64,000 nt of DNA from an uncultured Planctomycetota bacterium (GTDB lineage: Bacteria; Planctomycetota; Planctomycetia; Isosphaerales; Isosphaeraceae). Positions 44,989-57,994 of the stretch are shown here, piece after piece (positions within the stretch are counted from its first letter, which is position 1; the number at the start of each line of letters is the position of its first letter). Position numbers and translations under genes: made by a program. A model generated the notes under the pieces. The model made no database searches. It was not told the DNA's origin and saw nothing but the letters and a program-made list of their open reading frames with translations. The stretch is taken from NCBI GenBank assembly GCA_963823665.1, contig CAWGMQ010000002.1, forward strand, positions 64,001-128,000, given 5' to 3'.

Positions 44989-47900
44989 TCATTCTGGCAA
45001 TGAAGTCACCAGTTCGAGCTGCTTGCCCGATTCATGGTTCTCGCCAGGAGTGGATTCCTGCTTCTTCTGACCGAACCACTGGATCACGTAGTAAAAGACC
45101 GGTGTGAGGAAGATGCCGAACAGCGTGACCCCGAGCATGCCCGCGAAGACGGCCGTCCCGAGCGCGCGGCGCATCTCGGCACCGGCCCCCTCAGCCAGCA
45201 CCAGCGGCACGACTCCGAAGATGAACGCGAAAGACGTCATCAAGATCGGTCGCAGCCGCAGCCGGCACGCGGCGACGGTCGCTTCTGCTCGCGGCATACC
45301 TGACTCCTGGCTCTGCTTGGCGAATTCCACGATCAAAATGGCGTTCTTGCTGGCCAGGCCCACGAGCACCACGAACCCGATCTGGGTGAAAAGGCTGACA
45401 TCCATGCGGGCCAGGTAAACACCCACCAGCGAGCACAGCAAGCACATCGGCATCACCAGGATCACCGCCAGCGGCAGTTTCCAGCTCTCATACTGGGCCG
45501 CCAGCACCAGGAACACGAAGACGACCGCCAGCGCAAACGCGATCGTGGCGCTATTGCCCGCATTGAGCTGCATGTAGGCCAGCTCGGTCCAGTCGGGCGC
45601 CATCGACCGCGGCAACTCCTCGCGCGCGACTTGCTCCATGAGCGCAATCGCTTCTCCAGAGCTCGTCCCCGCCGCCGGATTGCCGGTGATCGCGGTGCTG
45701 GAATACATGTTGTAGCGCATCACCATCACCGGCCCGCTGGTGCTGCTCACGTCGAGCAGCGTGGCCAGGCGGATCATATCCCCCTTCGTGTTCCGCACCT
45801 GAAGTTGACCGATATCGCTAGGGTCGCCGCGGAACTGCTGATCGGCCTGGATGTTCACCTGCCACGACCGGCCGAAATTGTTGAAGTTGTTGACATAATA
45901 AGAACCCAGGTACACCTGCAACGTGTTGAACAGCTCGCTGACCGGCACGCCCAGAGCCACGCACTTGGTCCGGTCGATCTGGAGGTACAGCCAGGGCGTG
46001 TTGGCACGCGAGCTGTTGAAGAGGCCCTGGAGTCCCGGCGTCTGGTTGCCCCGTTCCACGATCGCATCGCTCACCCGCTGCAAATACTCCAGCCCGAGAT
46101 TCCCGCGATCCTCGATGATCAGCTTGAAGCCGCCGGTTGTGCCCAGGCCGTCGATGGGCGGAGCTCCGAACGCAGAGACGATCGCGCCGCGCACCTTGCT
46201 TTGACAGCGTCGCTTCAGATCCGCGGCAATCTCGTCGGCCGTGAGCTTGGAGCCATGCCGCTTGGAAAACTCCTCGAGCATGACGTACATCGAGCCGAGA
46301 TTGGGCGCGTTGGCATTGAGGAGCAGCGACTGGCCCGAAACGCCGACGGTGTGCTCAACCCCTGGAGTGCCCCGGGCCTCGGGGTGACCGACAATGGATG
46401 TGACGGCGTCAATCACCTGCTTTCTCTCGCTATTGGAAATCTGGTGGGGAGCCCACATGCCGGCAAGTAGCTTTTTGAGTTCTTCAATCCGCCGGGCGTG
46501 TTCTGGCAGACTTTTCTCATTGGTGTCGGCGACCAACTGGCGATCCAGATCGAAGATGCGGCAGTAAAGCGTTTGATTCACTAGAGCGACGGCGACCAGG
46601 CCCTCGCCTGCTGTCGGGATGCGGCTCACGTCGTTCGTCGGCGAAATCACCTTCAGATCGTACCCACCCGACACCTTCTCGATACGTGCCATCACGCGCT
46701 GAGTACGCTCCACCGATGCGGAATCCGGCAACTGCACGTTCAGCAGCAGATACCCTTTGTCTTGCTGCGGAACGAATCCCGTTGGTGCGTGGTTGAACTG
46801 CCAGTAAGTCAGCACCAGGAGACCGCCGTAGAGCATGAGCACGATGGCGCTGATGCGCAGCACGCCTCCGACAATGCGGCCGTAGACCGCGATCATCCGG
46901 TCGAATAGACGGTTGAATCCCCTGAACAGCCAGCCCAGGACGGCGTTCACCGGCCGGATGATCAAGAAGCCGATCACTCCACCGACGAGCGCGCCGGCGG
47001 AGAAATAGGCGGCGGTGACTCCACGAGACGTCCAGTCGGAGACTTCCGACAGCTCGGCGCCGCTGCCGGCGGCCCAGGCAGGCCAAACCGACCGGCGAGG
47101 TATTGAGGCCCGTAGTACATGACCAGCAAGCCTCCCACCACCCCGAAGATCCACCATGGCAGCGCCTCCCGCTTCAGCTCATGACCATGGGCTCGCTCCT
47201 CCGTCTTGAAGATCAGCACCGCCCGCGAGGGAGTCATCGTGAGCGCGTTCATCGCCGAGATGATTGTCGAGACCGCAATCGTCACCGCGAACTGCCTGAA
47301 GAACTGGCCCGTGATCCCACCCAGGAAACAGCACGGCACGAACACCGACGACAGCACAAGCGTGATGGCCAGAATCGGGCCGGTGATCTCTTCCATGGCC
47401 TTGATCGTGGCCGTCCGTGAGTCGAGCCCGGTGGCGATCAGCCGTTCGATGTTCTCCAGCACGACGATGGCGTCGTCGACGACGATGCCGATGGCGAGCA
47501 CCAGCCCGAAGAGCGTCAAGTTATTGAGCGAGAAGCCCATCGCCGCCATGATCGCGAACGTGCCGATCAGCGAGACGGGCACGTCGATCATGGGCAGGAT
47601 CATGGCCTTCCAGTCCTGCAAGAATACCAGTACGACGATGCCCGACCAGGATCACCGCGTCACGCAACGTCTTGAAGACCTCGTCAACCGACTCCTGAAT
47701 AAACGGGGTGGTGTCGTACACAATCTGGTAATCCACGCCGTCGGGGAAGCGGGTCTTGAGCTCCCTCATCTTGGCCTTGACGCCGGCGGCGGTGTCGAGC
47801 GCATTTGAGCCGGATAGCTGGTAGATCGAGATCGCCACCGATGGACGGCCGTCTAGGGTGCAGGACTGGTCATACTGCCTCGAGCCCAGCTCGACCCGCG

Positions 47901-48843
47901 CCACGTCGCGCAGTCGCACAATTCCGGGCACTTGAGGCAACGCGCCCTGGTTGCTCGCCCCGCCCTGATCTGCCGCCCCTCCTTCTGCCGTCTCGCCGCT
48001 CTGCCCACCCTGGCTCTGGCCTCCCGAGCCGCTCGCGCCCCCCGCTGACGACGGCATCTGCGGGTTCGACTGATTTCCGGCCTTCAGGATGATCGCTTCG
48101 AACTGCTCCGGCTCGATCAGCCGGCCCAGCGTATTGATCGTGAGCTGAAACTGCTGGCCGCGGGGAACGGGCTGCTGGCCGATCTGGCCGGCGGCGACCT
48201 GTAAGTTCTGCTGACTGATGGCCGCGACGACATCCATCGCACTCAAGTTGAGCGACGCCAGCTTCTGCGGGTCGAGCCAGGCCCGCAGGCTGTAATCTCG
48301 CTGGCCCAGATAGGTGATGCCCGCGACTCCGGGAAGCCGCCCCAGCTCATCCTTCAAGTAAATGGTCGCGTAGTTGCTCAAGAATGTGCTGTCGTACTGA
48401 CCGTCAGGGGATATCAGGTTGACGATCATCAGCGTGTTGGGCGACATCTTCTTGACGCTGATGCCCTCGTTCTGCACGAGGGGCGGTATGACCGGCAGCG
48501 CCAGCGAGACGCGATTCTGCACCAGCACCTGCGCCATGTCGGTGTCCATCCCCAGCCGGAACGTCACCGTCAGATTGTAGGCGCCGTCGTTGGTGCACTG
48601 CGACGACATGTACATCATGTTCTCGACGCCGCTGACCTGCTCCTCGATGGGCGCGGCCACGGTATTGCGCACTGTCTGCGCATTGGCACCCGGATAAATG
48701 GCCGTGACGAGCACCGTCGGCGGCGTCACCTCGGGGTACTGTGCCATCGGCAGCGTGAAGACGGCCACGCCTCCCGCCAGTACAAATACGACCGAGAGCA
48801 CGATGGCAAACACCGGACGGTCGATGAAGAAGCGCGAAATCAC
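44989..48843 (-). CDS. HAE1 (AcrB/MexF-like) RND permease 2, with insertions; frameshifts near 47640 and 47070
   Basis: GTG start with [64 protein letters not shown]. Confidence 0.9.
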
Positions 48844-51800
48844 GGCTCTTGGTCTCCATCCGGCCCACCGGAATCGACAGGAGAAACGAGGGACGATGCG
48901 TTCGCCCTGGACCGCTGCCGGATCAGTCTGATGAAGGACAAGCACCCCTAAAGCGGCCAGGCATCCCGCCGAGCCGCAGAGCCAGAGCGCCCGCGGCAAT
49001 GCGAACACGCCGAGCTGCGCCAGCACGTAGCCGATCAAGAGCCCGGCGATTCCCGACAGCAGCGTCGACCCGGCCCATCGAACCGCCGCGGTCTCCAGCA
49101 GCCGCGTCTCGGTCAATCCCTGGATCACCGAGAAGAAGACCGGCGTCAAGAAGATGCCGAACATCGTCACGCCCGACCATGCCGCTGAACACGGCAATGC
49201 CCAGCGACCGGCGCATCTCGGCGCCGGCGCCGGCGGCGATGGCCAGCGGGATCACGCCGATGATGAACGCAAACGATGTCATCAGGATCGGACGCAGCCG
49301 CAGCCGGCATGCCTCTCGCGTCGCGTCGAAGCCGAGACCAGCCCTCGAGGTGCTTCTGCTTGGCGTATTCGACGATCAGGATCGCGTTCTTGCACGCCAG
49401 CCCCACCAGCACCACCAGCCCGATCTGCACGAAAATGTTGACGTCCCGGCCCGAATAGAGCACCCCCGATACCGAGCACAACAGACACATCGGCACCACC
49501 AGGATCACCGCCAGCGGCAGCGCCCAGCTTTCGTACAGGGCCGCCAGAGCCAGGAAGACGCTGGCCACCGCCAGCGCGAAAACGAACAACGCGGGGTTCT
49601 TTTCCGCCGCCCGGATCTGCACGAACATCAGCTCGGTCCACTCCTCCCTCATCGACAAGCGGCAGGCTGTCGTGGGACGCAGCGTTGATGGCCTTGATGG
49701 CGTCTCCCGAGCTGAATCCCGGCAGCATGTTGCCGGTGATTGACGCAGACGTGTACAGGTTATAGCGCGTGACGACGATGGGCCCGCCACGATCGCTTTT
49801 CACCTGATTCACGTTGACCAGGGTGCCGAGCGGGACCATCTCGCCACGGTTGTTCCGTACCTGGAACAGGTTCAAGGCCTCGATCCGGTTGCGGTATTCG
49901 CCCTCTGCCTGGACAGTCACCTGCCAGTGGCGGCCGAACTGGTTGAAGCTGTTGACGTACAGCGAGCCCAGGAGCATCGACAGCGTCTGATTGACGTCCT
50001 CGAACGCGACTCCCAGGGCAACGGCCTTGGTCCGGTCGATGTCCAGCCAGATCGACGGCGCGTTGGAGCGGAACCCGGTCGCTACGTCGGCCAGACCGGG
50101 CAGGCTCCGCAGCCTGCGCGTCAAGAGGTCGGTCTCGGTCTGCAGATCGGTGAGTCCGCGGCCGCCGCGGTCCTCGACCATGATCTTGAACCCGCCCGCA
50201 ACGCCCAGGCCCGGGATCGGCGAGGAATTTCGCACGCTGACGATGGCATCCTTGACCCGCTTTCTGTACTCGGGTATCAGCCGGGCCATGATGTCATCGG
50301 CGTGCAGCCCGAGAGGGGCCAGATCGAGAATCGACTGCCAGCGCCTCGATCACCCGGCGCTTCTCGCGCCCCGTCAGCTCATGAGGAGCCCACAAGCCCG
50401 CAAGCCGCTCTCCTTCAGACGTTCGATTTCTCCGGCCTGTCCCAGAAGCTTCTTCTCATCCGTGTCGACAACCGGCTTGCCCTGGCGGTCGAACACGCGG
50501 AAATGGAGCACGTCATTGACGGAGGCCACGATGTTCAGGTCGTTGCCTGCTGACGGGATCTCAGTGACGTCCTCGAGCGCAGGCATCAATCGTACGTCAG
50601 ACCCGACGGCGGGTCTCGGCTTGCCGAACGTGCCCTCCCGGATCCGCCTGGGCCACGCCAGCAAGTCGGCGAACAATCCTCGGGGCCTCCGTTCGTCGAA
50701 CGGCTCCAGGACGACGAACATCGAGCCGAAATTGGAGGCGTTGGACTGGAGCAGAAACGACATTCCCGCGAGGCTGACCGCGTGGGCCACGCCCGGCGTC
50801 GCGAGCGTGATCTTGTCGACCAGGGCCATGGCCTCCTTGCGTGCGCTGCAGCGATGCCGAGTCGGGCAACTGCACGCTGAGGATCAGCCGGCCCTGGTCT
50901 TGCTGGGGAATGAAGCCCGTGGGTGCCTGCTGGAAGACCCGATACGAAAGCGCCACCAGGCCGCCGTAGACGAGCAACACGACGAGACTGATGCGCAGCA
51001 GCCTGCCGACCAACCAACTGTACCCGTGGGTGACGATGTCGAACAAGCGGTTAAAGCCCCGGAAGAGCCAGCCCAGGACCGCATTCACCGGCCGAATGAT
51101 CAACCAGCCGACCAACCCGCCGACTAGCAGCGCCCGGAGGCGCGAAGTATGCGACCGTTATCGCCCAGTACATCCAGCCGGTGCCTTCCGCCTTGCCGGT
51201 TTCACTGGAGGAGGCAGGGAGACCAAACCGCCCGCCCAGATAGTCTGGCCCGTAGAGCACAGTCAACAGACCGCCTACCAGGGCGAAGAACCACCAGGGC
51301 AACGCCTCACGCTTCAGCTCATGGCCACCGTGAGCCGCTTGCTCGGTCTTGAAGATCAGCACGGCCCGCGAAGGCGTCATGGTCAGCGCGTTCACAGCCG
51401 AGATGATCGTCGACACGGCGATCGTCACCGCGAACTGCCGGAAGAACTGGCCCGTGATCCCGCCCAGGAAACAGCACGGCACGAACACCGACGAAAGCGC
51501 CAGCGTGATGGCCAGAATCGGGCCGGTGATCTCCTCCATGGCCTTGATCGTGGCGGTCCGCGCGTCGAGCCCCGTCGCCATCATCCGCTCGACGTTTTCC
51601 AGCACCACGATCGCATCGTCGACCACGATGCCGATCGCCAGGACCAGTCCGAATAGCGTCAGGTTGTTGAGCGAAAAGCCCATCGCCGCCATGATCGCGA
51701 ACGTGCCGATCAGCGAGACGGGCACGTCGATCATGGGCAGGATCATGGCCCTCCAGTCCTGCAGGAACACGAGCACCACGATGCCGACCAGGATCACCGC

Positions 51801-52864
51801 GTCGCGCAGCGTCTTGAAGACTTCGAAGACCGACTCGCGGATGTACGGGGTCGTGTCGTAGGCGATTTCGTAGTCCAGTCCCTCCGGAAAGCGGGTCTTG
51901 AGCTCTTCCATCTTCAGCCGCACCCGGTCGGCAACGTCAAGCGCATTGGTGCCGGGAAGCTGGTAGATGGAGAGGCCCACCGACTGGTGGCCGTCGAACG
52001 TGCAAGACTGGTTGTAGTTCTGCGCGCCCAGCTCCATCCGCGCCACGTCACGCAGGCGGACGATCCCCGTCGCTGGATCGTCCGAATCAATCGAGCCGGC
52101 CTTGACCACGATCGCCCCGAACTGCTCCGGAGTCGTGAGCCGGCCCAGCGTGTCGATCGGCAACTGGAACGTGTTGACCCTGGGCGCGGGCATCTGGCCG
52201 ATCTGGCCGGCGGGCGCATCGATGTTCTCGGTGCGGATGGCGTTGGCCACATCCATGGCGGTCATGCTGCGCGACGGCCAGCTCCTGCGGCTTGAGCCAG
52301 GCGCGGATGCTGTAGTCGCGCTGGCCCATGTAAGTTGATGTCGGAGACGCCGTAGACGCGCAACAGCTCGTCCTTGACGTAGATCGTGGCGTAGTTGCTC
52401 AGGTAGATGTCGTCATAGCGATCGTCGGGCGAGAAGAAGTTGACGATCATCAAGATATCGGGCGTTCTCTTGCGGATCGTGATCCCCTGGTTCTGGACTT
52501 CGGGCGGCAACTGCGGCATGGCGAGCGCCACGCGGTTCTGCACCATGACCAGGGCCGAATTGACGTCGGTGCCGATATCGAAGGTGACGGTCAGCGTGTA
52601 CGACCCGTCGTTGCCCATCTGCGAGGACATGTAGAGCATGCCCTCGACGCCGTTGACCTGCTGCTCGATCACCGCGGCCACCGTGTCGGCCACGACCGGG
52701 GCACTGGCCCCGGGGTAGTTGATCGTCACCGAGATCCCGGGGGGAGTGATCCGGGGATACTGCGCCATCGGCAGCCAGACCAGGGAGATCCCGCCGATCA
52801 AGGTGATCACGACCGAGAGCACCGTCGCAAAGATCGGTCGATCGATGAAGAATCTGGAGAGCAT
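48840..52864 (-). CDS. HAE1 RND permease 1, with insertions and an extra C-terminal TM hairpin; multiple frameshifts
   Basis: [60 protein letters not shown]; probable TGA overlapping the next GTG. Confidence 0.88.
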
Positions 52865-52880: not shown

Positions 52881-55323
52881 TCACTCGGCTTTATCGACTG
52901 CCGGCAACACCGACGAGCCGGGCGCTGCCGACGGTTGAGCAGCCCGGGCGGCTGGGCCGAGCGTCGGCATCGGCACCCGTTCCGGTTTGATCTTCCCACC
53001 CTGCCGGGTCTGCAAGATTCCGCCGCTCAAGACCCAGTCGTCCGGCTTCGAGTCCCTCTTCGACCGCCCTCAAGCCGTCGGGCTGAAGGGCGCCCGTCGT
53101 GATCCGGCGCGACTGGACCTTGTCTTCGGCATCGAGCACGTAGACGTACTTCTGCCCCTCGTGATCCGACGCAATGGCCCGGTCGATCACCAGGAGCGCA
53201 CGGTGAGGCTCCCCGATCGGCAGACGGATTCTCACGAACCGGCCCGGCGCCATCAGCCGGTGGCCGCTCTTGAGCATTGGGGTTGGCGAAGACACCTCGC
53301 ACCAGGATGCTGCCCGTCGTGGGATTGACCTGGTTGTCGACGAAGTTGATGGTCCCCTGGTGCGGGTAGCCCTCCTCGCCCTGGAGCCCCATGAGGACCG
53401 GTATCTTGGTACGGTCCTTGGGCAGCCGCAGCTTCCCTTCGTTGAGTGCCCTGCGATGGCGCAGCAGGGTGGGCTCGTCCATCTCGAAGTGAACGTAAAT
53501 CGGGTCGACCGACACGATCGTGGTCAAGCGTGTCTGGTTCTGGGTGACCAGGTTGCCCAGGGTTTTGCGGTAGTAGCTGATCTGGCCGTCGATGGGCGAG
53601 AGCACCCGCGTGAATTCGTGGTTCGAGCCGGGAGATCTCCATGCTTTTTTCATAGGCATCGACCCTGGCCTGGGCCTCATCGGCGATCGCCTCGTCCTGA
53701 TCAATCTGCTGCGGGCTGACCGAGCTGGGCCGGATCAGGTTGACGGCCCGGTCACGGGCAAGGGTTGTCCTGGCCAGCTTGAGCTGGGCCTGATAGAGAT
53801 TGACCTGGCCCTGGGCCTGGTCGAGCTGGGCTTTGTAGGGCCGGCGATCAACCACGAACAGCAAGTCTCCTTCCTTCACCTCGGCCCCTTCTTGAAACGG
53901 CATCTGGACCAGGTAGCCGGTGACCATGGGGATGATGTCCACGGTCTGAACGGCCTTGGTCTGGCCGGTAAAGTCGACGTAGTCGGTGATTTCCCTGCGA
54001 AATCGGCCTGGCTGACCGGCAGCACCGGCGGACTGGCTGGAACCGGCTTTGGCCGACTTGGTCTTGGGCTCCGCCGCTTTTTGATCGGCCACGACCGGCT
54101 GGCCGAACATCGGCATCGCCACCCGCTCCGGCCGGATCAGCATTCGCGGCCGGATCTGCAAGAGGGCGCCGCTGACGATCCATTCGTCCGGCTTCAACCC
54201 GTCTTCGATCACCCTCAGGTCGTCGTCCTCGAGCGCACCGGCAGTGACCCGGCGGGACTGAACCTTGTTGTCGGCATCGAGCACGTAGACGTACTTCAGC
54301 CCCTGATCCGACGCAATCGCTCGATTTCGCACCAGGAGCGCCCGGTGCGGCAGGCTGATCGGCAGGCGGATTCTGCGCGAACATACCGGGCGAGATCAGT
54401 CGCCGGCCCCCCTTGGGCAGCGGGTTCGGGAATACAGCTCGCAGCAGAGTGGTGCCCGTCGCTGCATTGCTCTGGTTGTTGACCAGGTTGACGGTCCCCT
54501 GGTGCGGGAAGCCGATCTCCCCTTGCAGCTCCATGGAGACCGGCATCGGCTCGATCCTTGGTCGACTCGCCCTTCCGTTCGTTCGATCGGCCTTCAGGTA
54601 TCGCGTCGAGCGTGGGCTCGTCCACCTCGAAGTAAACGTACATCGGGTCCACCGACACGACCGTGGTCAAGAGCGTCTGATCCTGGTTGACCAGGTTGCC
54701 CTTGGTCATGTAGTAACGGCTGATCTGGCCGTCGATCGGCGACAAGACCTTGGTGAATTCGTAGCTGAGCTTGTAGAGCTCCATGCTCCTCTGGGCGGCG
54801 TCGACCCTGGCACGGGCCTCGTCGACCACCGCCTGCTCCTGGTCAAATTGCTGCGAGCTGACCGAGCCAGGCGAGCGGACGTTGATGGCCCGATTCCGGG
54901 CCAGGGTTCGTCCTGGCCAGCCTGAGCGAGGCCTTGTTGAGATCGACCTGGCCTTGAGCCTGGTCGAGCTGGGCCTTGTAAGGCCGGGGATCGACCTCGA
55001 ACAGCAGGTCTCCCTTCTTGACCTCCGCTCCTTCCACGAACGGCATCTGGACCAGGTAGCCGGTGACCTGGGGGATGATCTCGTTCGAGAAGATGCCCTT
55101 GGTTTGCCCGGTGAATTCCGCGTAGTCGGTGACTTCCCTCTGGAACGGGCTGGCTGACCGGCACCACCGGCGGCTCTGCCGGCGCGATCTTCGCCGCATT
55201 TGACTGACAGCCAGCAACACCAGCCGCGAGTGTGCAGGAAACACCGAAGCACAGCAACACTCGCCAGGTCTTCGACCCGGTCGGGCAGAGGGATTTCAGG
55301 CGAACGTGGCGTGGGGCGCTCAT
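52881..55323 (-). CDS. Tandem double RND membrane-fusion (adaptor) lipoprotein, ~810 aa; multiple frameshifts
   Basis: One lipobox (VAGC), then two complete MFP units (REVTDYAEFTG...GDLLFEVDPRPY...SPIDGQIS and REITDYVDFTG...GDLLFVVDRRPY...SPIDGQIS). Confidence 0.82.
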
Positions 55324-56083
55324 ATTTGATCCAACCCCGGTAAGAGAGAATGGTGGCGGGCGTTTAATTATAAATCAAACTCGTCAAGCAGCACCGAGGT
55401 GTGAAATGCGGGGCGTCTAGGGAAATCATTCCAACGAAGATCTCACACATTACCATAAAGAACCGAGACGATGATATGCCCCCAGAGACAAGGAAGAACT
55501 TTCTCGATCCGAGCCAGAATGTGGCGATTCGGTCGGCAGTGCACTCAGGATACGCGTTCGCGCGGGCTCGTCGCTCGTTCGGCCTCTGAAGAGCCGGCCC
55601 GGCGCATTCCGGCAAGAAATATTTACACCCGCCGTCCCGAGTACCCACTACAACGTGGCGTGAGCGGAGTTCATAATACTGCGTTCCCAGCTTGATGATG
55701 GGCCGCTATGGTGGCTTCCCCGCACGGAGATGCCGACGGCCCACGGTTGGGCGTTCTCTCGCCTGGCGCTAGGAGGACAAAGTCCGATGCACACTCGTAG
55801 AAGACTCCTGCTCCGTTTCGTCGTCTGCTGTGCCACGATGTCGCTGTTCGTCGCGACGGCGACGGTGTTCGCCGAGGAGCTGATTGGCGCGCTCACCAAA
55901 GTCGACGTCGAGGGCAAGAAGATCACGGTTGTTGACAAGGACGACAAGGAAACCGAGATCAAAGTCACCGACGAAACCGAGTACCCCACGAAGAAGGATA
56001 CCAAATACGACCTCGAGAAACTGAACGGCTTGGTCAAGGAACGGACCGATGCCGGTAAGAAAGTAAACGTCAAAGTAACTTAT

Positions 56084-57994
56084 GACGTCTCCGACAAAAG
56101 TTCGTCGAGTTTAGTTTTCTGCGCAAGTTAATGTAAAATCTGAGTTTATGTCCATTTCTCCCTTGACTCTAGCGAGGCGCACCTCTACATTCAAGTATCC
56201 CCTGCGAAAGGAGTTGCGCCCGCCATGATCCACATCGTTGACCCGCGGCAAAACCGCCTGTTCGACCCCTTCGAGGGCGTCATACCTCCCGCCGGTCAAC
56301 GGATCATCAGCTCGGGCTGGCAGGGAGTCTTTCGACACGTCCTCCTCAAACTGATGCCCGTAGGTCAACTGGCCCAGCATTTCAGCCGGGAACTGGGAGC
56401 CCCCACCAAGGAACTGTACTCGATGGCCGGCTTGGTCTTCATGACCGACTTCTTCGACTGGACCGCCCAAGAGGCCGCCGAGGCTTACATCTTCCGCAGC
56501 GACGTCCAATACGCCCTTAACTTGGAGCCCGGCGTTGAAGTGTCGTCGCGCACGGTCGAGCGTTACCAAAAGCTCTTTCGCGAGAACGAACTGGCCGCTC
56601 AGGTCTTCCACGACGTGACGATTGGACTGGCGGAAAAGCTCGAACTCGACATCTCCCGCCAGCGGCTCGACTCGACCCACGTCTTTTCTCACATGGCCAG
56701 CTTTGGTCGCACCAAGCTGATGGCCGTGGCAATCAAGCGGTTCCTGACCCAGGTGATCCGGCATGCCCCTGAGCGGTACGCCGCGTTGCCCGCGGAGTTC
56801 TGCGGGCGCTACGAACCGGCAGAATCGCAGTTGTTCGCCGCCGCCAAGGATGCCGAGGCTCGACAGCGGTCGCGGCAGCAAGCAGCCGAGGACTTGTGCT
56901 GGATCATCGACCACTTCGCCAATTGTCCCGACATGACGGCCCGGTCGAGCTACAAGGCCCTAGTCACGATCTTCAGCCAGCAGTGCGAACTGAGTGAGGG
57001 CAAAGTTGTCGTGAAGGCCAAGACCGGCGGTGACTGCGTTCAGAACCCGTCCGACCTCAGCGCCGGCTACGACGCCCACAAAGGTAAGGGCTATCAGGTG
57101 CAGATCACCGAGACGTGCAGCTCTGAGAACGAGGTGCAGTTGATCACAGGCGCTCTGCCGCAGGGTGCCGCGGAGCACGACGGCACGGCGGTGGTGCCGA
57201 TGCTCGATCAACTCGAAGACTCGAAGTTGTTGCCCGAGGAGATGCTGGCTGACACGCTCTACTGCGGCGACGAGAACGTACAAGCGGCCGAGGACCGCGG
57301 CGTGGAGCTGGTCGGACCGATCCCCGGTCGGGAGCCGGCAAGCGACCCTGGGCGCTGACGCTGGACGACTTCGCGGTGGATGAACGGACCGGGCGGGTGG
57401 AAGCCTGTCCGCAAGGGCACATGCCGCTTGTGGTCGAGCGGAACGAAGAAGTAGGCACGACGCGAATCCAGATGGCGGCGGCAGCGTGCGAAGGATGCCC
57501 GTTCCGCACGTCGTGCCCGATCCACCAAACGCGGGATGGTCGCTACGAGCTGGATTTCAGTGACAAGGATCATCGGATGGCTGGGCGTCGCCGGGAACAA
57601 GAGACACCGGTATTCGCGGAGCGGTACAGGATGCGCTCGGGCATCGAGTCGACCAATAGCGGCTTGAAGAATCGGCTGAGGTTGGAACGTCTGCGAGTGC
57701 GAGGCCGCGGGAGTGTGTTCCGTGTGATCCTGCACAAAGTGGCGGGCTGGAACGTGCTACGGGCGGCAGCGTCGAAGAAGCTGCGCGCGTGGGTGAGCCG
57801 CGAAGTGGCCCAGACGCTGAAAGGAGCTGAATCTGGGCCAACTGGGCGACTCTGCGCGCTCGTTCTGAGGCTGTGGGACGGTTTTCAGATGATTTTCCGC
57901 GGTTCTCACGGCTGTTCGGTTGATCTTGGAGGCTGTTGGGCCGCTTGAGCGTGCATCACTGACAATTCACAGGCGGCATTCTGTCGGCAGCGTC
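56084..57994 (+). mobile_element. 1911-bp insertion sequence (IS1182/ISDol1-like DDE) with 6-bp target duplication ACTTAT
   Basis: ACTTAT at 56078..56083 and 57995..58000. Imperfect terminal IRs: GACGTCTCCGACAAAAG versus GACGCTGCCGACAGAAT (reverse complement of the right end). Confidence 0.9.
56225..57948 (+). CDS. DDE transposase with zinc-ribbon insertion; frameshift near 57350
   Basis: QRLDSTH, NPSDLSAGY..HKGKGYQVQITET, MLADTLY, CPQGH...CEGCPFRTSC, YRMRSGIESTNSGLK. Confidence 0.9.

Follow-up and report, generated by a model that had tools for sequence, protein, structure and literature searches.

A 93-aa module found in two RND efflux genes is, as far as sequence tells, the reading frame of a 286-bp non-autonomous transposon (MITE). 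Very probably the module is the cargo of a miniature transposon of the ISKra4 family (Mutator-like), carried by its host proteins as a tolerated, folded and unexcised passenger. The two copies lie in the window, a 64,000-nt stretch of the genome of an uncultured bacterium of the Isosphaeraceae (genome G000). That the module ends are transposon repeats, and that related genomes hold a full IS with the same ends, became visible only in a wider analysis. The features in the window are as follows.

44989..48843, (-) strand: RND2 host gene, AcrB/AcrD/AcrF family, in several frameshifted pieces in the assembly
46372..46379, (-) strand: RND2 downstream 8-bp target duplication, compared with the upstream copy
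46380..46665, (-) strand: RND2 MITE copy, coding, read through in the host frame; 286 bp, module residues at 46384-46662
46380..46401, (-) strand: right terminal inverted repeat of the RND2 copy, coding for the C-terminal ..TSIVGHP; 18/22 identical to the IS end
46644..46665, (-) strand: left terminal inverted repeat of the RND2 copy, coding for G-Y-D-L-K-V-I; 12/22 identical to the IS end
46666..46673, (-) strand: RND2 upstream 8-bp target duplication, decayed; 3/8 match to the downstream copy (5/8 in G001, a genome of the same genus)
48850..52864, (-) strand: RND1 host gene, AcrB/AcrD/AcrF family, in several frameshifted pieces, lower end approximate
50316..50604, (-) strand: RND1 MITE copy, coding; 289 bp, that is, 286 plus 3 bases absent from G001 and from two public runs
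50605..50690, (-) strand: extra loop residues upstream of the RND1 copy, outside the element, partly like host sequence downstream of the copy

The initial annotation described one domain inserted in frame at different sites in the two paralogues. The RND2 insert (46384-46662, (-) strand) translates exactly as given there, within one open frame, and the RND1 insert (50320-50601, (-) strand) is present and broken by two small indels, as had been noted. The element proper is wider (46380-46665 and 50316-50604) and is joined by an 8-bp duplication, and the further extra residues upstream of the RND1 module do not belong to it. In G001 the RND1 copy is intact. Because G001 and the contigs of two public DNA runs lack the extra bases at both indel places (50334, 1 base; 50406, 2 bases), the RND1 frame breaks are most likely assembly errors. 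The reported 40/93 gap-free identities were recovered when the intact G001 RND1 copy was aligned with the RND2 insert; for the RND1 copy of the window itself, identity to the RND2 insert is 42% over the first 64 residues. Each paralogue is indeed empty at the site used by the other. G001 has both insertions at the same sites, which argues against the misassembly that the annotation had considered, and the public runs agree. A contig from an RNA run bridges the RND2 right junction with 8 differences in 200 bases, although contigs cannot show transcription. The RND2 insert falls between residues 600 and 609 of 7wlv_A, the closest solved pump. The segment around the RND1 site measures 54 aa in five empty relatives, 153 aa in G069, 160 aa in G061 and is longer still in G000 and G001. 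The ends of the RND1 copy match the IS end at 18/22 (left) and 12/22 (right) positions, and the RND2 copy is 28.7% diverged from its subfamily consensus. The window's two copies are separate, old insertions.

The first and last residues of the module (GYDLRLM and TSIVGHT) are translated 22-bp terminal inverted repeats. Profiles of 53 module starts and 47 ends are complementary, with a G codon before the module and a T codon after it. The terminal codons are rare synonyms (CTA in 40/83, CGA in 55/83 and TCA in 55/83 copies); in the module interior, the same codons make up 29 of 670 Leu, 39 of 446 Arg and 18 of 371 Ser codons. MITE copies are 283-298 bp long. Element and duplication together (286 + 8 bp) give 294 bp or 98 codons, and RND2 has 127 aa where 15 empty RND2-type relatives have 29 aa, an excess of exactly 98; over a longer segment, RND2 has 399 aa versus 300-302 aa in empty relatives.

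We found 37 MITE copies by their DNA ends, 35 of which could be scored for the duplication. It matches at 8/8 positions in 7 copies and at 7/8 in 3, and the match falls from 5.5/8 to 3.0/8 as divergence rises. In database proteins, 70 of 233 module occurrences have a match at both duplicated residues (shuffled mean 1.5, maximum 7). Counting against the model, some copies of low divergence have no duplication (e.g., L109 and L115, 1/8), and the duplications of the window's copies are poor, with only 3/8 for RND2. L109 was also considered as an RND2-site orthologue and rejected, as its similarity to RND2 is limited to the right flank. Two subfamilies, although their interiors differ strongly, agree in frame and core residues, and each has copies with perfect 8-bp duplications. 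No two copies are identical (they lie 4.7-44% from the consensus), which, as a further point against the model, gives no sign of current mobility. The features of MITEs seen here are inverted repeats, duplications, short length, no transposase, many dispersed copies, empty alleles and an autonomous element with the same ends. Comparison of the MITE interior with seven IS copies and two further same-end elements, as DNA and in six-frame translation, brought no significant match. That the MITE interior is unrelated to the IS interior also counts against the model.

In related genomes, the same 22-bp repeats bound a 1.42-kb IS with a 427-aa transposase and 8-bp target duplications. The 22-nt end pattern was detected at 29 loci in genome contigs; three identical elements of 1,421 bp, flanked by 8-bp duplications, are among them. 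Both ends were found at 25 of the 55 related IS loci examined (8-bp duplications in 16, 9-bp in 2), and one genome (G021) holds three copies of the partner IS along with 8 module matches. The 427-aa ORF scores 205.8 bits on NCBIfam transpos_ISKra4 (NF033572), a marginal pass less than 1 bit above the cut-off of 205, and Pfam gives no match for it, which weighs against the model. On this marginal pass, the partner IS would be a member of the ISKra4 family, placed at the family level (subgroups ISAzba1, ISMich2, ISKra4). In the main text of the paper on that family, where the word MITE is absent, the family (p-MULT 4, Mutator-like DDE) has 18-39-bp inverted repeats and 8-9-bp direct repeats, occurs in Planctomycetes and includes some members with passenger genes (PMC3942029). 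The partner IS fits these ranges; the window elements would be transposase-less derivatives of this IS class, not members. This full-size transposon with matching ends could move the module element. A further point against the model is that the cognate transposase was not found in G000, a genome that is 92% complete. G000 has a distant ISKra4-like gene that scores below the cut-off, and no inverted repeats were found around it. The 22-nt end pattern had 0 matches in viral contigs, and tblastn gave no match in plasmids.

The module is widely dispersed within one bacterial family. The window's genome has 11 matches in unrelated proteins, and the module occurs in 62 of 121 genomes of the host's family and in 0 of 300 other genomes of the phylum, with 1-15 matches per genome. 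Stray copies were seen in one Gemmataceae and one Solibacteraceae bin. The module profile matches 1,714 protein clusters, of which we looked at 150 individually. Host proteins that extend at least 60 residues beyond the module number 207 and fall into 130 unrelated clusters, and 108 module copies occupy 85 distinct sites. Hosts include periplasmic transporter loops, sigma factors, peptidases, WD40 and TPR proteins and glycosidases. Such matches inside many unrelated proteins support the mobile in-frame coding element that had been suggested, and the many non-RND hosts show that the module is not restricted to the RND family. With most hosts outside the RNDs, there is no support for the alternative suggestion that the domain was recruited to the RND porter region.

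Nearly all copies are read through by their hosts. When copies were located purely by their DNA ends, 35 of 37 proved open in the host frame and the remaining two have small indels; in 33 of the open copies, at least 100 flanking codons are open as well. No intergenic or out-of-frame copy was detected among these 37 or among 40 DNA-level matches in five genomes, although several genomes are indel-rich long-read bins, so that frameshifted copies are indistinguishable from errors. Stop codons are absent from 65/65 matches and from the 150 listed of 220 matches, and the five other frames usually hold stops (31/35 copies). A neutral simulation gave a probability of no stop of 0.46 per copy, but for a set that was pre-filtered for open frames and left out subfamily B, so that the value carries no weight here. 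Because short non-coding elements with the same ends persist, zero intergenic copies among 37 exceeds what simple purging would lead us to expect, and this counts against the model.

AlphaFold predicts a compact alpha/beta domain for the module (pLDDT 90.1, pTM 0.78). Foldseek returned no match at E ≤ 0.001 on PDB and BFVD, the best VIA structural match was a YTH domain (Z 5.2, rmsd 3.7, 79 aligned) and the best ESM Atlas score was 0.78; matches this weak do not establish a new fold. No Pfam, NCBIfam or PHROG family was matched by more than one of 83 module members at E ≤ 0.01, and the module has no Pfam family, so that the known Pfam RND subdomain contemplated in the initial annotation did not emerge. 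The model of host plus insert (pLDDT 67, pTM 0.42, from an alignment of 25 rows, one partly misaligned) keeps the secondary structure of both and matches RND pumps at Z 16 but rmsd 11. At this medium confidence it falls short of proving that the host tolerates the insert. The pooled dN/dS at five sites shared by G000 and G001 is 0.238 for the insert and 0.254 for the host flanks; after insertion, the module is under purifying selection like that of its hosts. Against this, the all-against-all module dN/dS is only 0.54-0.69 in the four less diverged bins.

We propose that the DDE transposase of the full IS with the same 22-bp ends would act in trans, inserting the 286-bp element and creating the 8-bp target duplication; ends and duplications are observed. 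As 286 + 8 bp makes 294 bp and both ends can be read through in one frame, about one-sixth of genic insertions would be harmless to the frame, adding 98 residues and leaving the host gene unbroken, in keeping with the arithmetic and the empty alleles. The other five frames would usually bring stops and truncate the host, judging by 31/35 copies. The added residues are predicted to fold as a compact alpha/beta domain tolerated in a host loop or linker. Out-of-frame and intergenic copies, which are absent, would have been purged since the bursts, and the dN/dS values suggest that in-frame copies are kept by purifying selection for folding. The domain is most likely a tolerated passenger, folded and not excised, without a common biochemical job; we infer transposition, expression and any function of the module from sequence.

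Other explanations differ in how much of this they share. The domain may have the same transposon origin and a function of its own, such as binding, stabilising or localising its hosts, with in-frame copies positively kept. The dN/dS as low as the host's, an ECF sigma fusion insertion common to many relatives, near-invariant surface-type residues (R35, D46, G19, P16, G41) and proteins with two or three independent copies fit this reading. However, hosts and positions have no common feature, empty orthologues are the rule and fold searches gave no functional match, and folding alone would account for the conserved positions, which are mostly hydrophobic, Gly or Pro; we regard such a function as unlikely. 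Insertion could also be steered in frame if, say, target choice depended on codon phase or on translation, in which case the bias would precede purging. The lack of intergenic or out-of-frame copies (0 of 37, and 0 of 40 in five genomes) would then be explained, and copies do cluster within a few kb or one gene. Yet every MITE copy is old enough for purging, and a rough test on 16 8-bp sites of the full IS revealed no preferred phase, with 9 seemingly coding sites in phases 2/3/4 and 7 unclear ones. We know of no such targeting mechanism for DDE transposases, and we consider steering improbable.

An ordinary promiscuous domain spread by recombination, with incidental terminal repeats, would account for degenerate copies without recognisable ends (e.g., a tandem pair in a 6,458-codon ORF) and for an interior not derived from the IS. 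The near-perfect match of both ends to the IS end, the exact excess of 98 residues and the rare codons at the ends speak against it, and the 8-bp duplications largely refute it, making this origin very improbable. We give even less credence, next to none, to an intein-like or self-removing insert excised at the protein or RNA level. None of 83 copies ends in Asn, which bears out the earlier remark that intein termini are lacking; Pfam gives no intein match, and the first residue is Phe or Tyr in 43/83. It is Cys in 18/83 and Ser in 5/83, Thr or Ser follows the module in 56/83, a penultimate Gly-His is common and a terminal stem can form in the RNA (z -2.15), all of which could recall self-removal. 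That stem is merely the inverted repeat, and the terminal residues are as found because the DNA repeats dictate them.

The passenger transposon shares traits with known systems. Like Rickettsia palindromic elements (RPEs) and the coding repeats of Wolbachia and Methanocaldococcus, it is an in-frame repeat in unrelated genes that adds a conserved peptide. To our knowledge, no mobilising enzyme has been established for RPEs. RPEs are described as repeated elements in frame within unrelated protein-coding genes, to which they add a conserved peptide (PMC10969869, PMC2996958); they are about 150 bp long, with 105-146 bp tabulated (PMC3184786), and nearly half lie in ORFs (PMC10969869). Compared by description, the module element lies outside Rickettsia, exceeds 105-150 bp (286 bp is about twice as long), codes for 98 residues predicted to be globular, is found in ORFs only and has IS-type ends, 8-bp duplications and a candidate transposase. 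With prokaryotic MITEs (Nezha, QMITE1/2, ERIC, RUP, Correia) it shares short length, lack of a transposase, inverted repeats in common with an IS and target duplications. In published descriptions, MITEs do not code for protein and about 90% of them lie between genes, and in-frame cases are mostly short terminal extensions (PMC11602168), although some prokaryotic ones carry ORFs or fuse in frame (PMC3184786, PMC5896051). Unlike these, the module element is found solely as in-gene read-through, with cargo under protein-level selection. Inteins are mobile in-frame inserts that are near-neutral to the host protein. Unlike them, the module has no splicing residues or endonuclease, is apparently retained and would be spread to unrelated sites by a DDE transposase, not by homing. 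No published description of the element was found in the main texts of open full-text papers.

By the time the entry of a new domain into a protein is inferred, its traces have usually long vanished. Here every link can be read from sequence, from the transposase, the shared ends and the duplications to empty and filled alleles, the predicted fold and selection after insertion. The idea, raised by the Rickettsia elements, that selfish DNA is a source of protein sequence becomes directly testable through a candidate enzyme, and the insertions provide a natural map of more than 1,000 insertion-tolerant sites in bacterial proteins. The module also splits domain matches and will mislead annotation within this family of soil bacteria. 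More tentatively, and at slightly less than even chances, this may be a transposon lineage that survives as a protein domain, an intein-like commensal without splicing whose donor copies sit inside genes. Such donors would place the element under selection for a length that is a multiple of three with the duplication, for readable ends and for autonomous folding, in which the residues encoded by the repeats would make up the first strand and close the last helix; the agreement of the two subfamilies in frame and core residues, and their perfect duplications, fit this reading. If so, more than 1,000 protein clusters of a single bacterial family have gained a domain of a new family, and recombination between dispersed copies may also fuse unrelated genes. 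In each of two metagenome contigs, the left flank comes from one host and the right flank from another, either by such an event or by misassembly.

Both of the neighbouring AcrB-family pump genes of the window, RND1 and RND2, carry one module copy each, at the positions where the initial annotation had placed the inserts. The RND2 copy is a single open frame. The RND1 copy is broken by the two small indels already recognized there; these are probably errors of an indel-rich assembly, because the same-genus genome G001 and contigs from two public runs lack them. The intact RND1 copy of G001 aligns with the RND2 copy without gaps at 40/93 identities, the value first counted by eye. The module has no Pfam match; a match to a known Pfam RND subdomain was one of the results that the initial annotation had named as speaking against mobility.

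We compared the two genes with insert-free RND orthologues and found empty alleles, relative to which the filled RND2 site has a 98-codon excess, the length of the element plus an 8-bp duplication. From LPDSAS to GVxH, RND2 spans 127 aa in the source genome (G000) and in G001 vs 29 aa in 15 RND2-type relatives, a count of relatives in which the motif pair was found (the regular expression missed some of the 30 loci). The RND1 site is empty (54 aa) in five relatives and filled in two further genomes, G069 (153 aa) and G061 (160 aa), in both of which RND2 is empty. By this pattern the two window insertions are separate events; the initial annotation had called for two insertions or a relocation. 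Extra residues adjoin the RND1 copy. On the closest solved pump, the RND2 insertion point maps between residues 600 and 609, which we take to be a turn from helix to strand in the PC1 porter subdomain. Assembly indels appear to be frequent in the window, which has the following additional features:

47950-48080 (-), low-complexity insertion rich in Gly, Ser and Gln, within the N-terminal half of RND2
52890-55330 (-), upstream of RND1, tandem pair of membrane-fusion-protein-like genes, broken up by frameshifts as are the RND genes
57253-57945 (+), fragment of a transposase (Pfam DDE_Tnp_1_6) that has no relation to the ISKra4-type partner described below

A single-sequence search of G000 returned 7 module matches and a profile search returned 11 at E ≤ 0.001; one further weak profile match was discarded. 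The hosts are unrelated to one another, the outcome that the initial annotation had named as a sign of mobility. Some of the host labels were assigned by reading of the sequence.

Hosts of the module in G000
two RND pumps
ABC-permease-like membrane protein
protein with a metallopeptidase-like HEMMH motif
DUF4013-like protein
ECF sigma fusion
membrane hydrolase-like protein
6,458-codon ORF, two tandem copies
propeller-like protein, one split copy

The tandem copies are a degenerate subfamily-B pair (G000:C3:601496-602008), and the ORF around them is repetitive and of secreted type. Another degenerate subfamily-B copy (G000:C7:969709-970053) contains an in-frame insertion in its interior, also present in locus L068 and protein P0005.

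Within the family, 62 of 121 genomes have the module, with 1-15 matches each; among 300 genomes from elsewhere in the phylum, none gave a match. Named records with the module are mostly Isosphaeraceae or unclassified Planctomycetota bins, plus one Gemmataceae and one Solibacteraceae bin, which suggests that the family in question is Isosphaeraceae. A profile search of 1.84 billion representatives detected 1,714 proteins at E ≤ 0.001 (1,193 at 1e-10), the best 150 of which were inspected. After masking of the module, the 207 hosts that retain 60 or more residues formed 130 clusters, and the Pfam assignments for 94 of the best 150 include WD40, TPR, patatin, JAB, FGE-sulfatase, trehalase, MFS, ABC, sigma, NB-ARC and others. 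The hosts are many and unrelated. The element also sits at further sites in other RND pumps (L027, L031, L057 and G069:C8:635888), so RND genes are repeated hosts. Pairs of copies about 0.3-5 kb apart or in one gene (G107:C58, G069:C20, G069:C8, G120:C295, G033:C5, G030:C4, G145:C38 and the window) are apparently far commoner than the copy number per genome would suggest.

Alignment of the DNA at 53 module starts and 47 module ends showed the left and right ends to be reverse complements of each other over ~22 bases. The conserved GYDLRLM and TSIVGHT are the translated terminal repeats, written in codon types that are rare in the module interior. Of 37 copies, 27 are 286 bp long, 6 are 289 bp, and one each is 283, 298, 287 and 282 bp; 286 bp plus an 8-bp duplication makes 98 codons. 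The target duplication matches at 8/8 positions in 7 and at 7/8 in 3 of 35 scorable copies, and the match weakens with divergence of the copy. In an independent protein set, both expected duplicated residues match in 70 of 233 occurrences vs 1.5 in shuffles.

A scan for the 22-nt ends identified 29 loci. Among these are three elements of 1,421 bp, identical in sequence and flanked by 8-bp duplications, whose 427-aa ORF scores narrowly above the NCBIfam ISKra4 cut-off. The coding element and this insertion sequence (IS) have their ends and 8-bp duplications in common, and those of the IS agree with the 18-39-bp repeats and 8-9-bp duplications given for ISKra4-type elements in section 11 of PMC3942029. 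Both ends are present at 25 of 55 related transposase loci, with 8-bp duplications in 16 of the 25 and 9-bp duplications in 2, and one genome (G021) combines three IS copies with 8 module matches. By every feature that could be tested the element is a MITE, and it would be mobilised in trans; its interior is not derived from the IS. The searches made in G000 did not find the cognate transposase. At G000:C4:263621-264995 (L176) lies a distant ISKra4-like transposase, split over two frames and scoring under the family cut-off; a search for inverted repeats there found none. At one position of its left repeat the coding element has T, so that the first strand receives Leu; most IS ends have G there, which would give Arg, and a few related IS ends have T as well.

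We surveyed the reading frame with two scans for both DNA ends that were blind to frame and yielded 37 distinct copies. Thirty-five are open through the element into the flanks (in 33 of them, over 100 or more flanking codons); the remaining two, from long-read bins, have indels. All five other frames contain stops in 31 of the 35. DNA BLAST on five genomes gave 40 element-level matches. The 30 that have loci all lie in the frame of a host; two of them are frameshifted and two contain an interior insertion that keeps the frame. The remaining 10 coincide with protein matches or with loci already recorded. Neither the frame-blind scans nor the five-genome BLAST detected an intergenic or out-of-frame coding copy. 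The coding copies all differ from one another, with divergences of 4.7-44% from the main consensus; the bursts are therefore old. Since, in addition, full IS sites showed no codon-phase preference in a rough test, the simplest reading of the in-frame-only state is random insertion followed by purging, in which insertions other than in-frame would be lost. We note that the total absence of intergenic coding copies is stronger than expected under purging.

The copies that survive in frame are under purifying selection. Pooled over five sites common to G000 and G001, dN/dS is 0.238 for the insert vs 0.254 for the host flanks; for RND2 alone it is 0.38 vs 0.117, and all-against-all values are weaker (0.38-0.69). 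The fold prediction proposed in the initial annotation, made with AlphaFold for 83 copies, suggests a compact product of four strands and two helices (pLDDT 90.1, pTM 0.78), in which the repeats code the first strand and the end of the last helix. A structural search with the predicted module gave no confident match. Intein signatures are absent from the copies, as they had seemed to be from the two window inserts, and the insert would be kept in the mature host protein. The module may well have no common function across its hosts.

The likeness to Rickettsia palindromic elements seen at the outset holds in that an in-frame element occurs in unrelated genes; the element works alike but is not one of them. 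In the portions of the literature consulted, MITEs are mostly intergenic and in-frame coding repeats are short peptides (PMC10969869, PMC3184786, PMC5896051, PMC11602168, PMC2996958). A search of the main texts of part of the literature found no report of the element.

The same ends enclose other sequences. A 642-bp cassette in G000 has them around a TIR_2/SEFIR-domain gene (G000:C5:1131242-1131883; L078:1501-2142), and therefore these ends capture cargo; this is a second kind of cargo, possibly a mobile gene for defence or signalling. Ends of this type also occur singly and on short non-coding elements of 147-148 bp. Non-coding MITEs with unrelated interiors lie at L080:2501-2647 (Chloroflexia bin), with a perfect 8-bp duplication, and at G001:C19:3850-3997. 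On the metagenome contigs L109 and L115, the element joins left and right flanks from two different host genes (L109 has its left flank as in L209 and its right flank as in RND2, and L115 has the right flank alone in common with L123), reflecting either recombination between copies or assembly chimeras.
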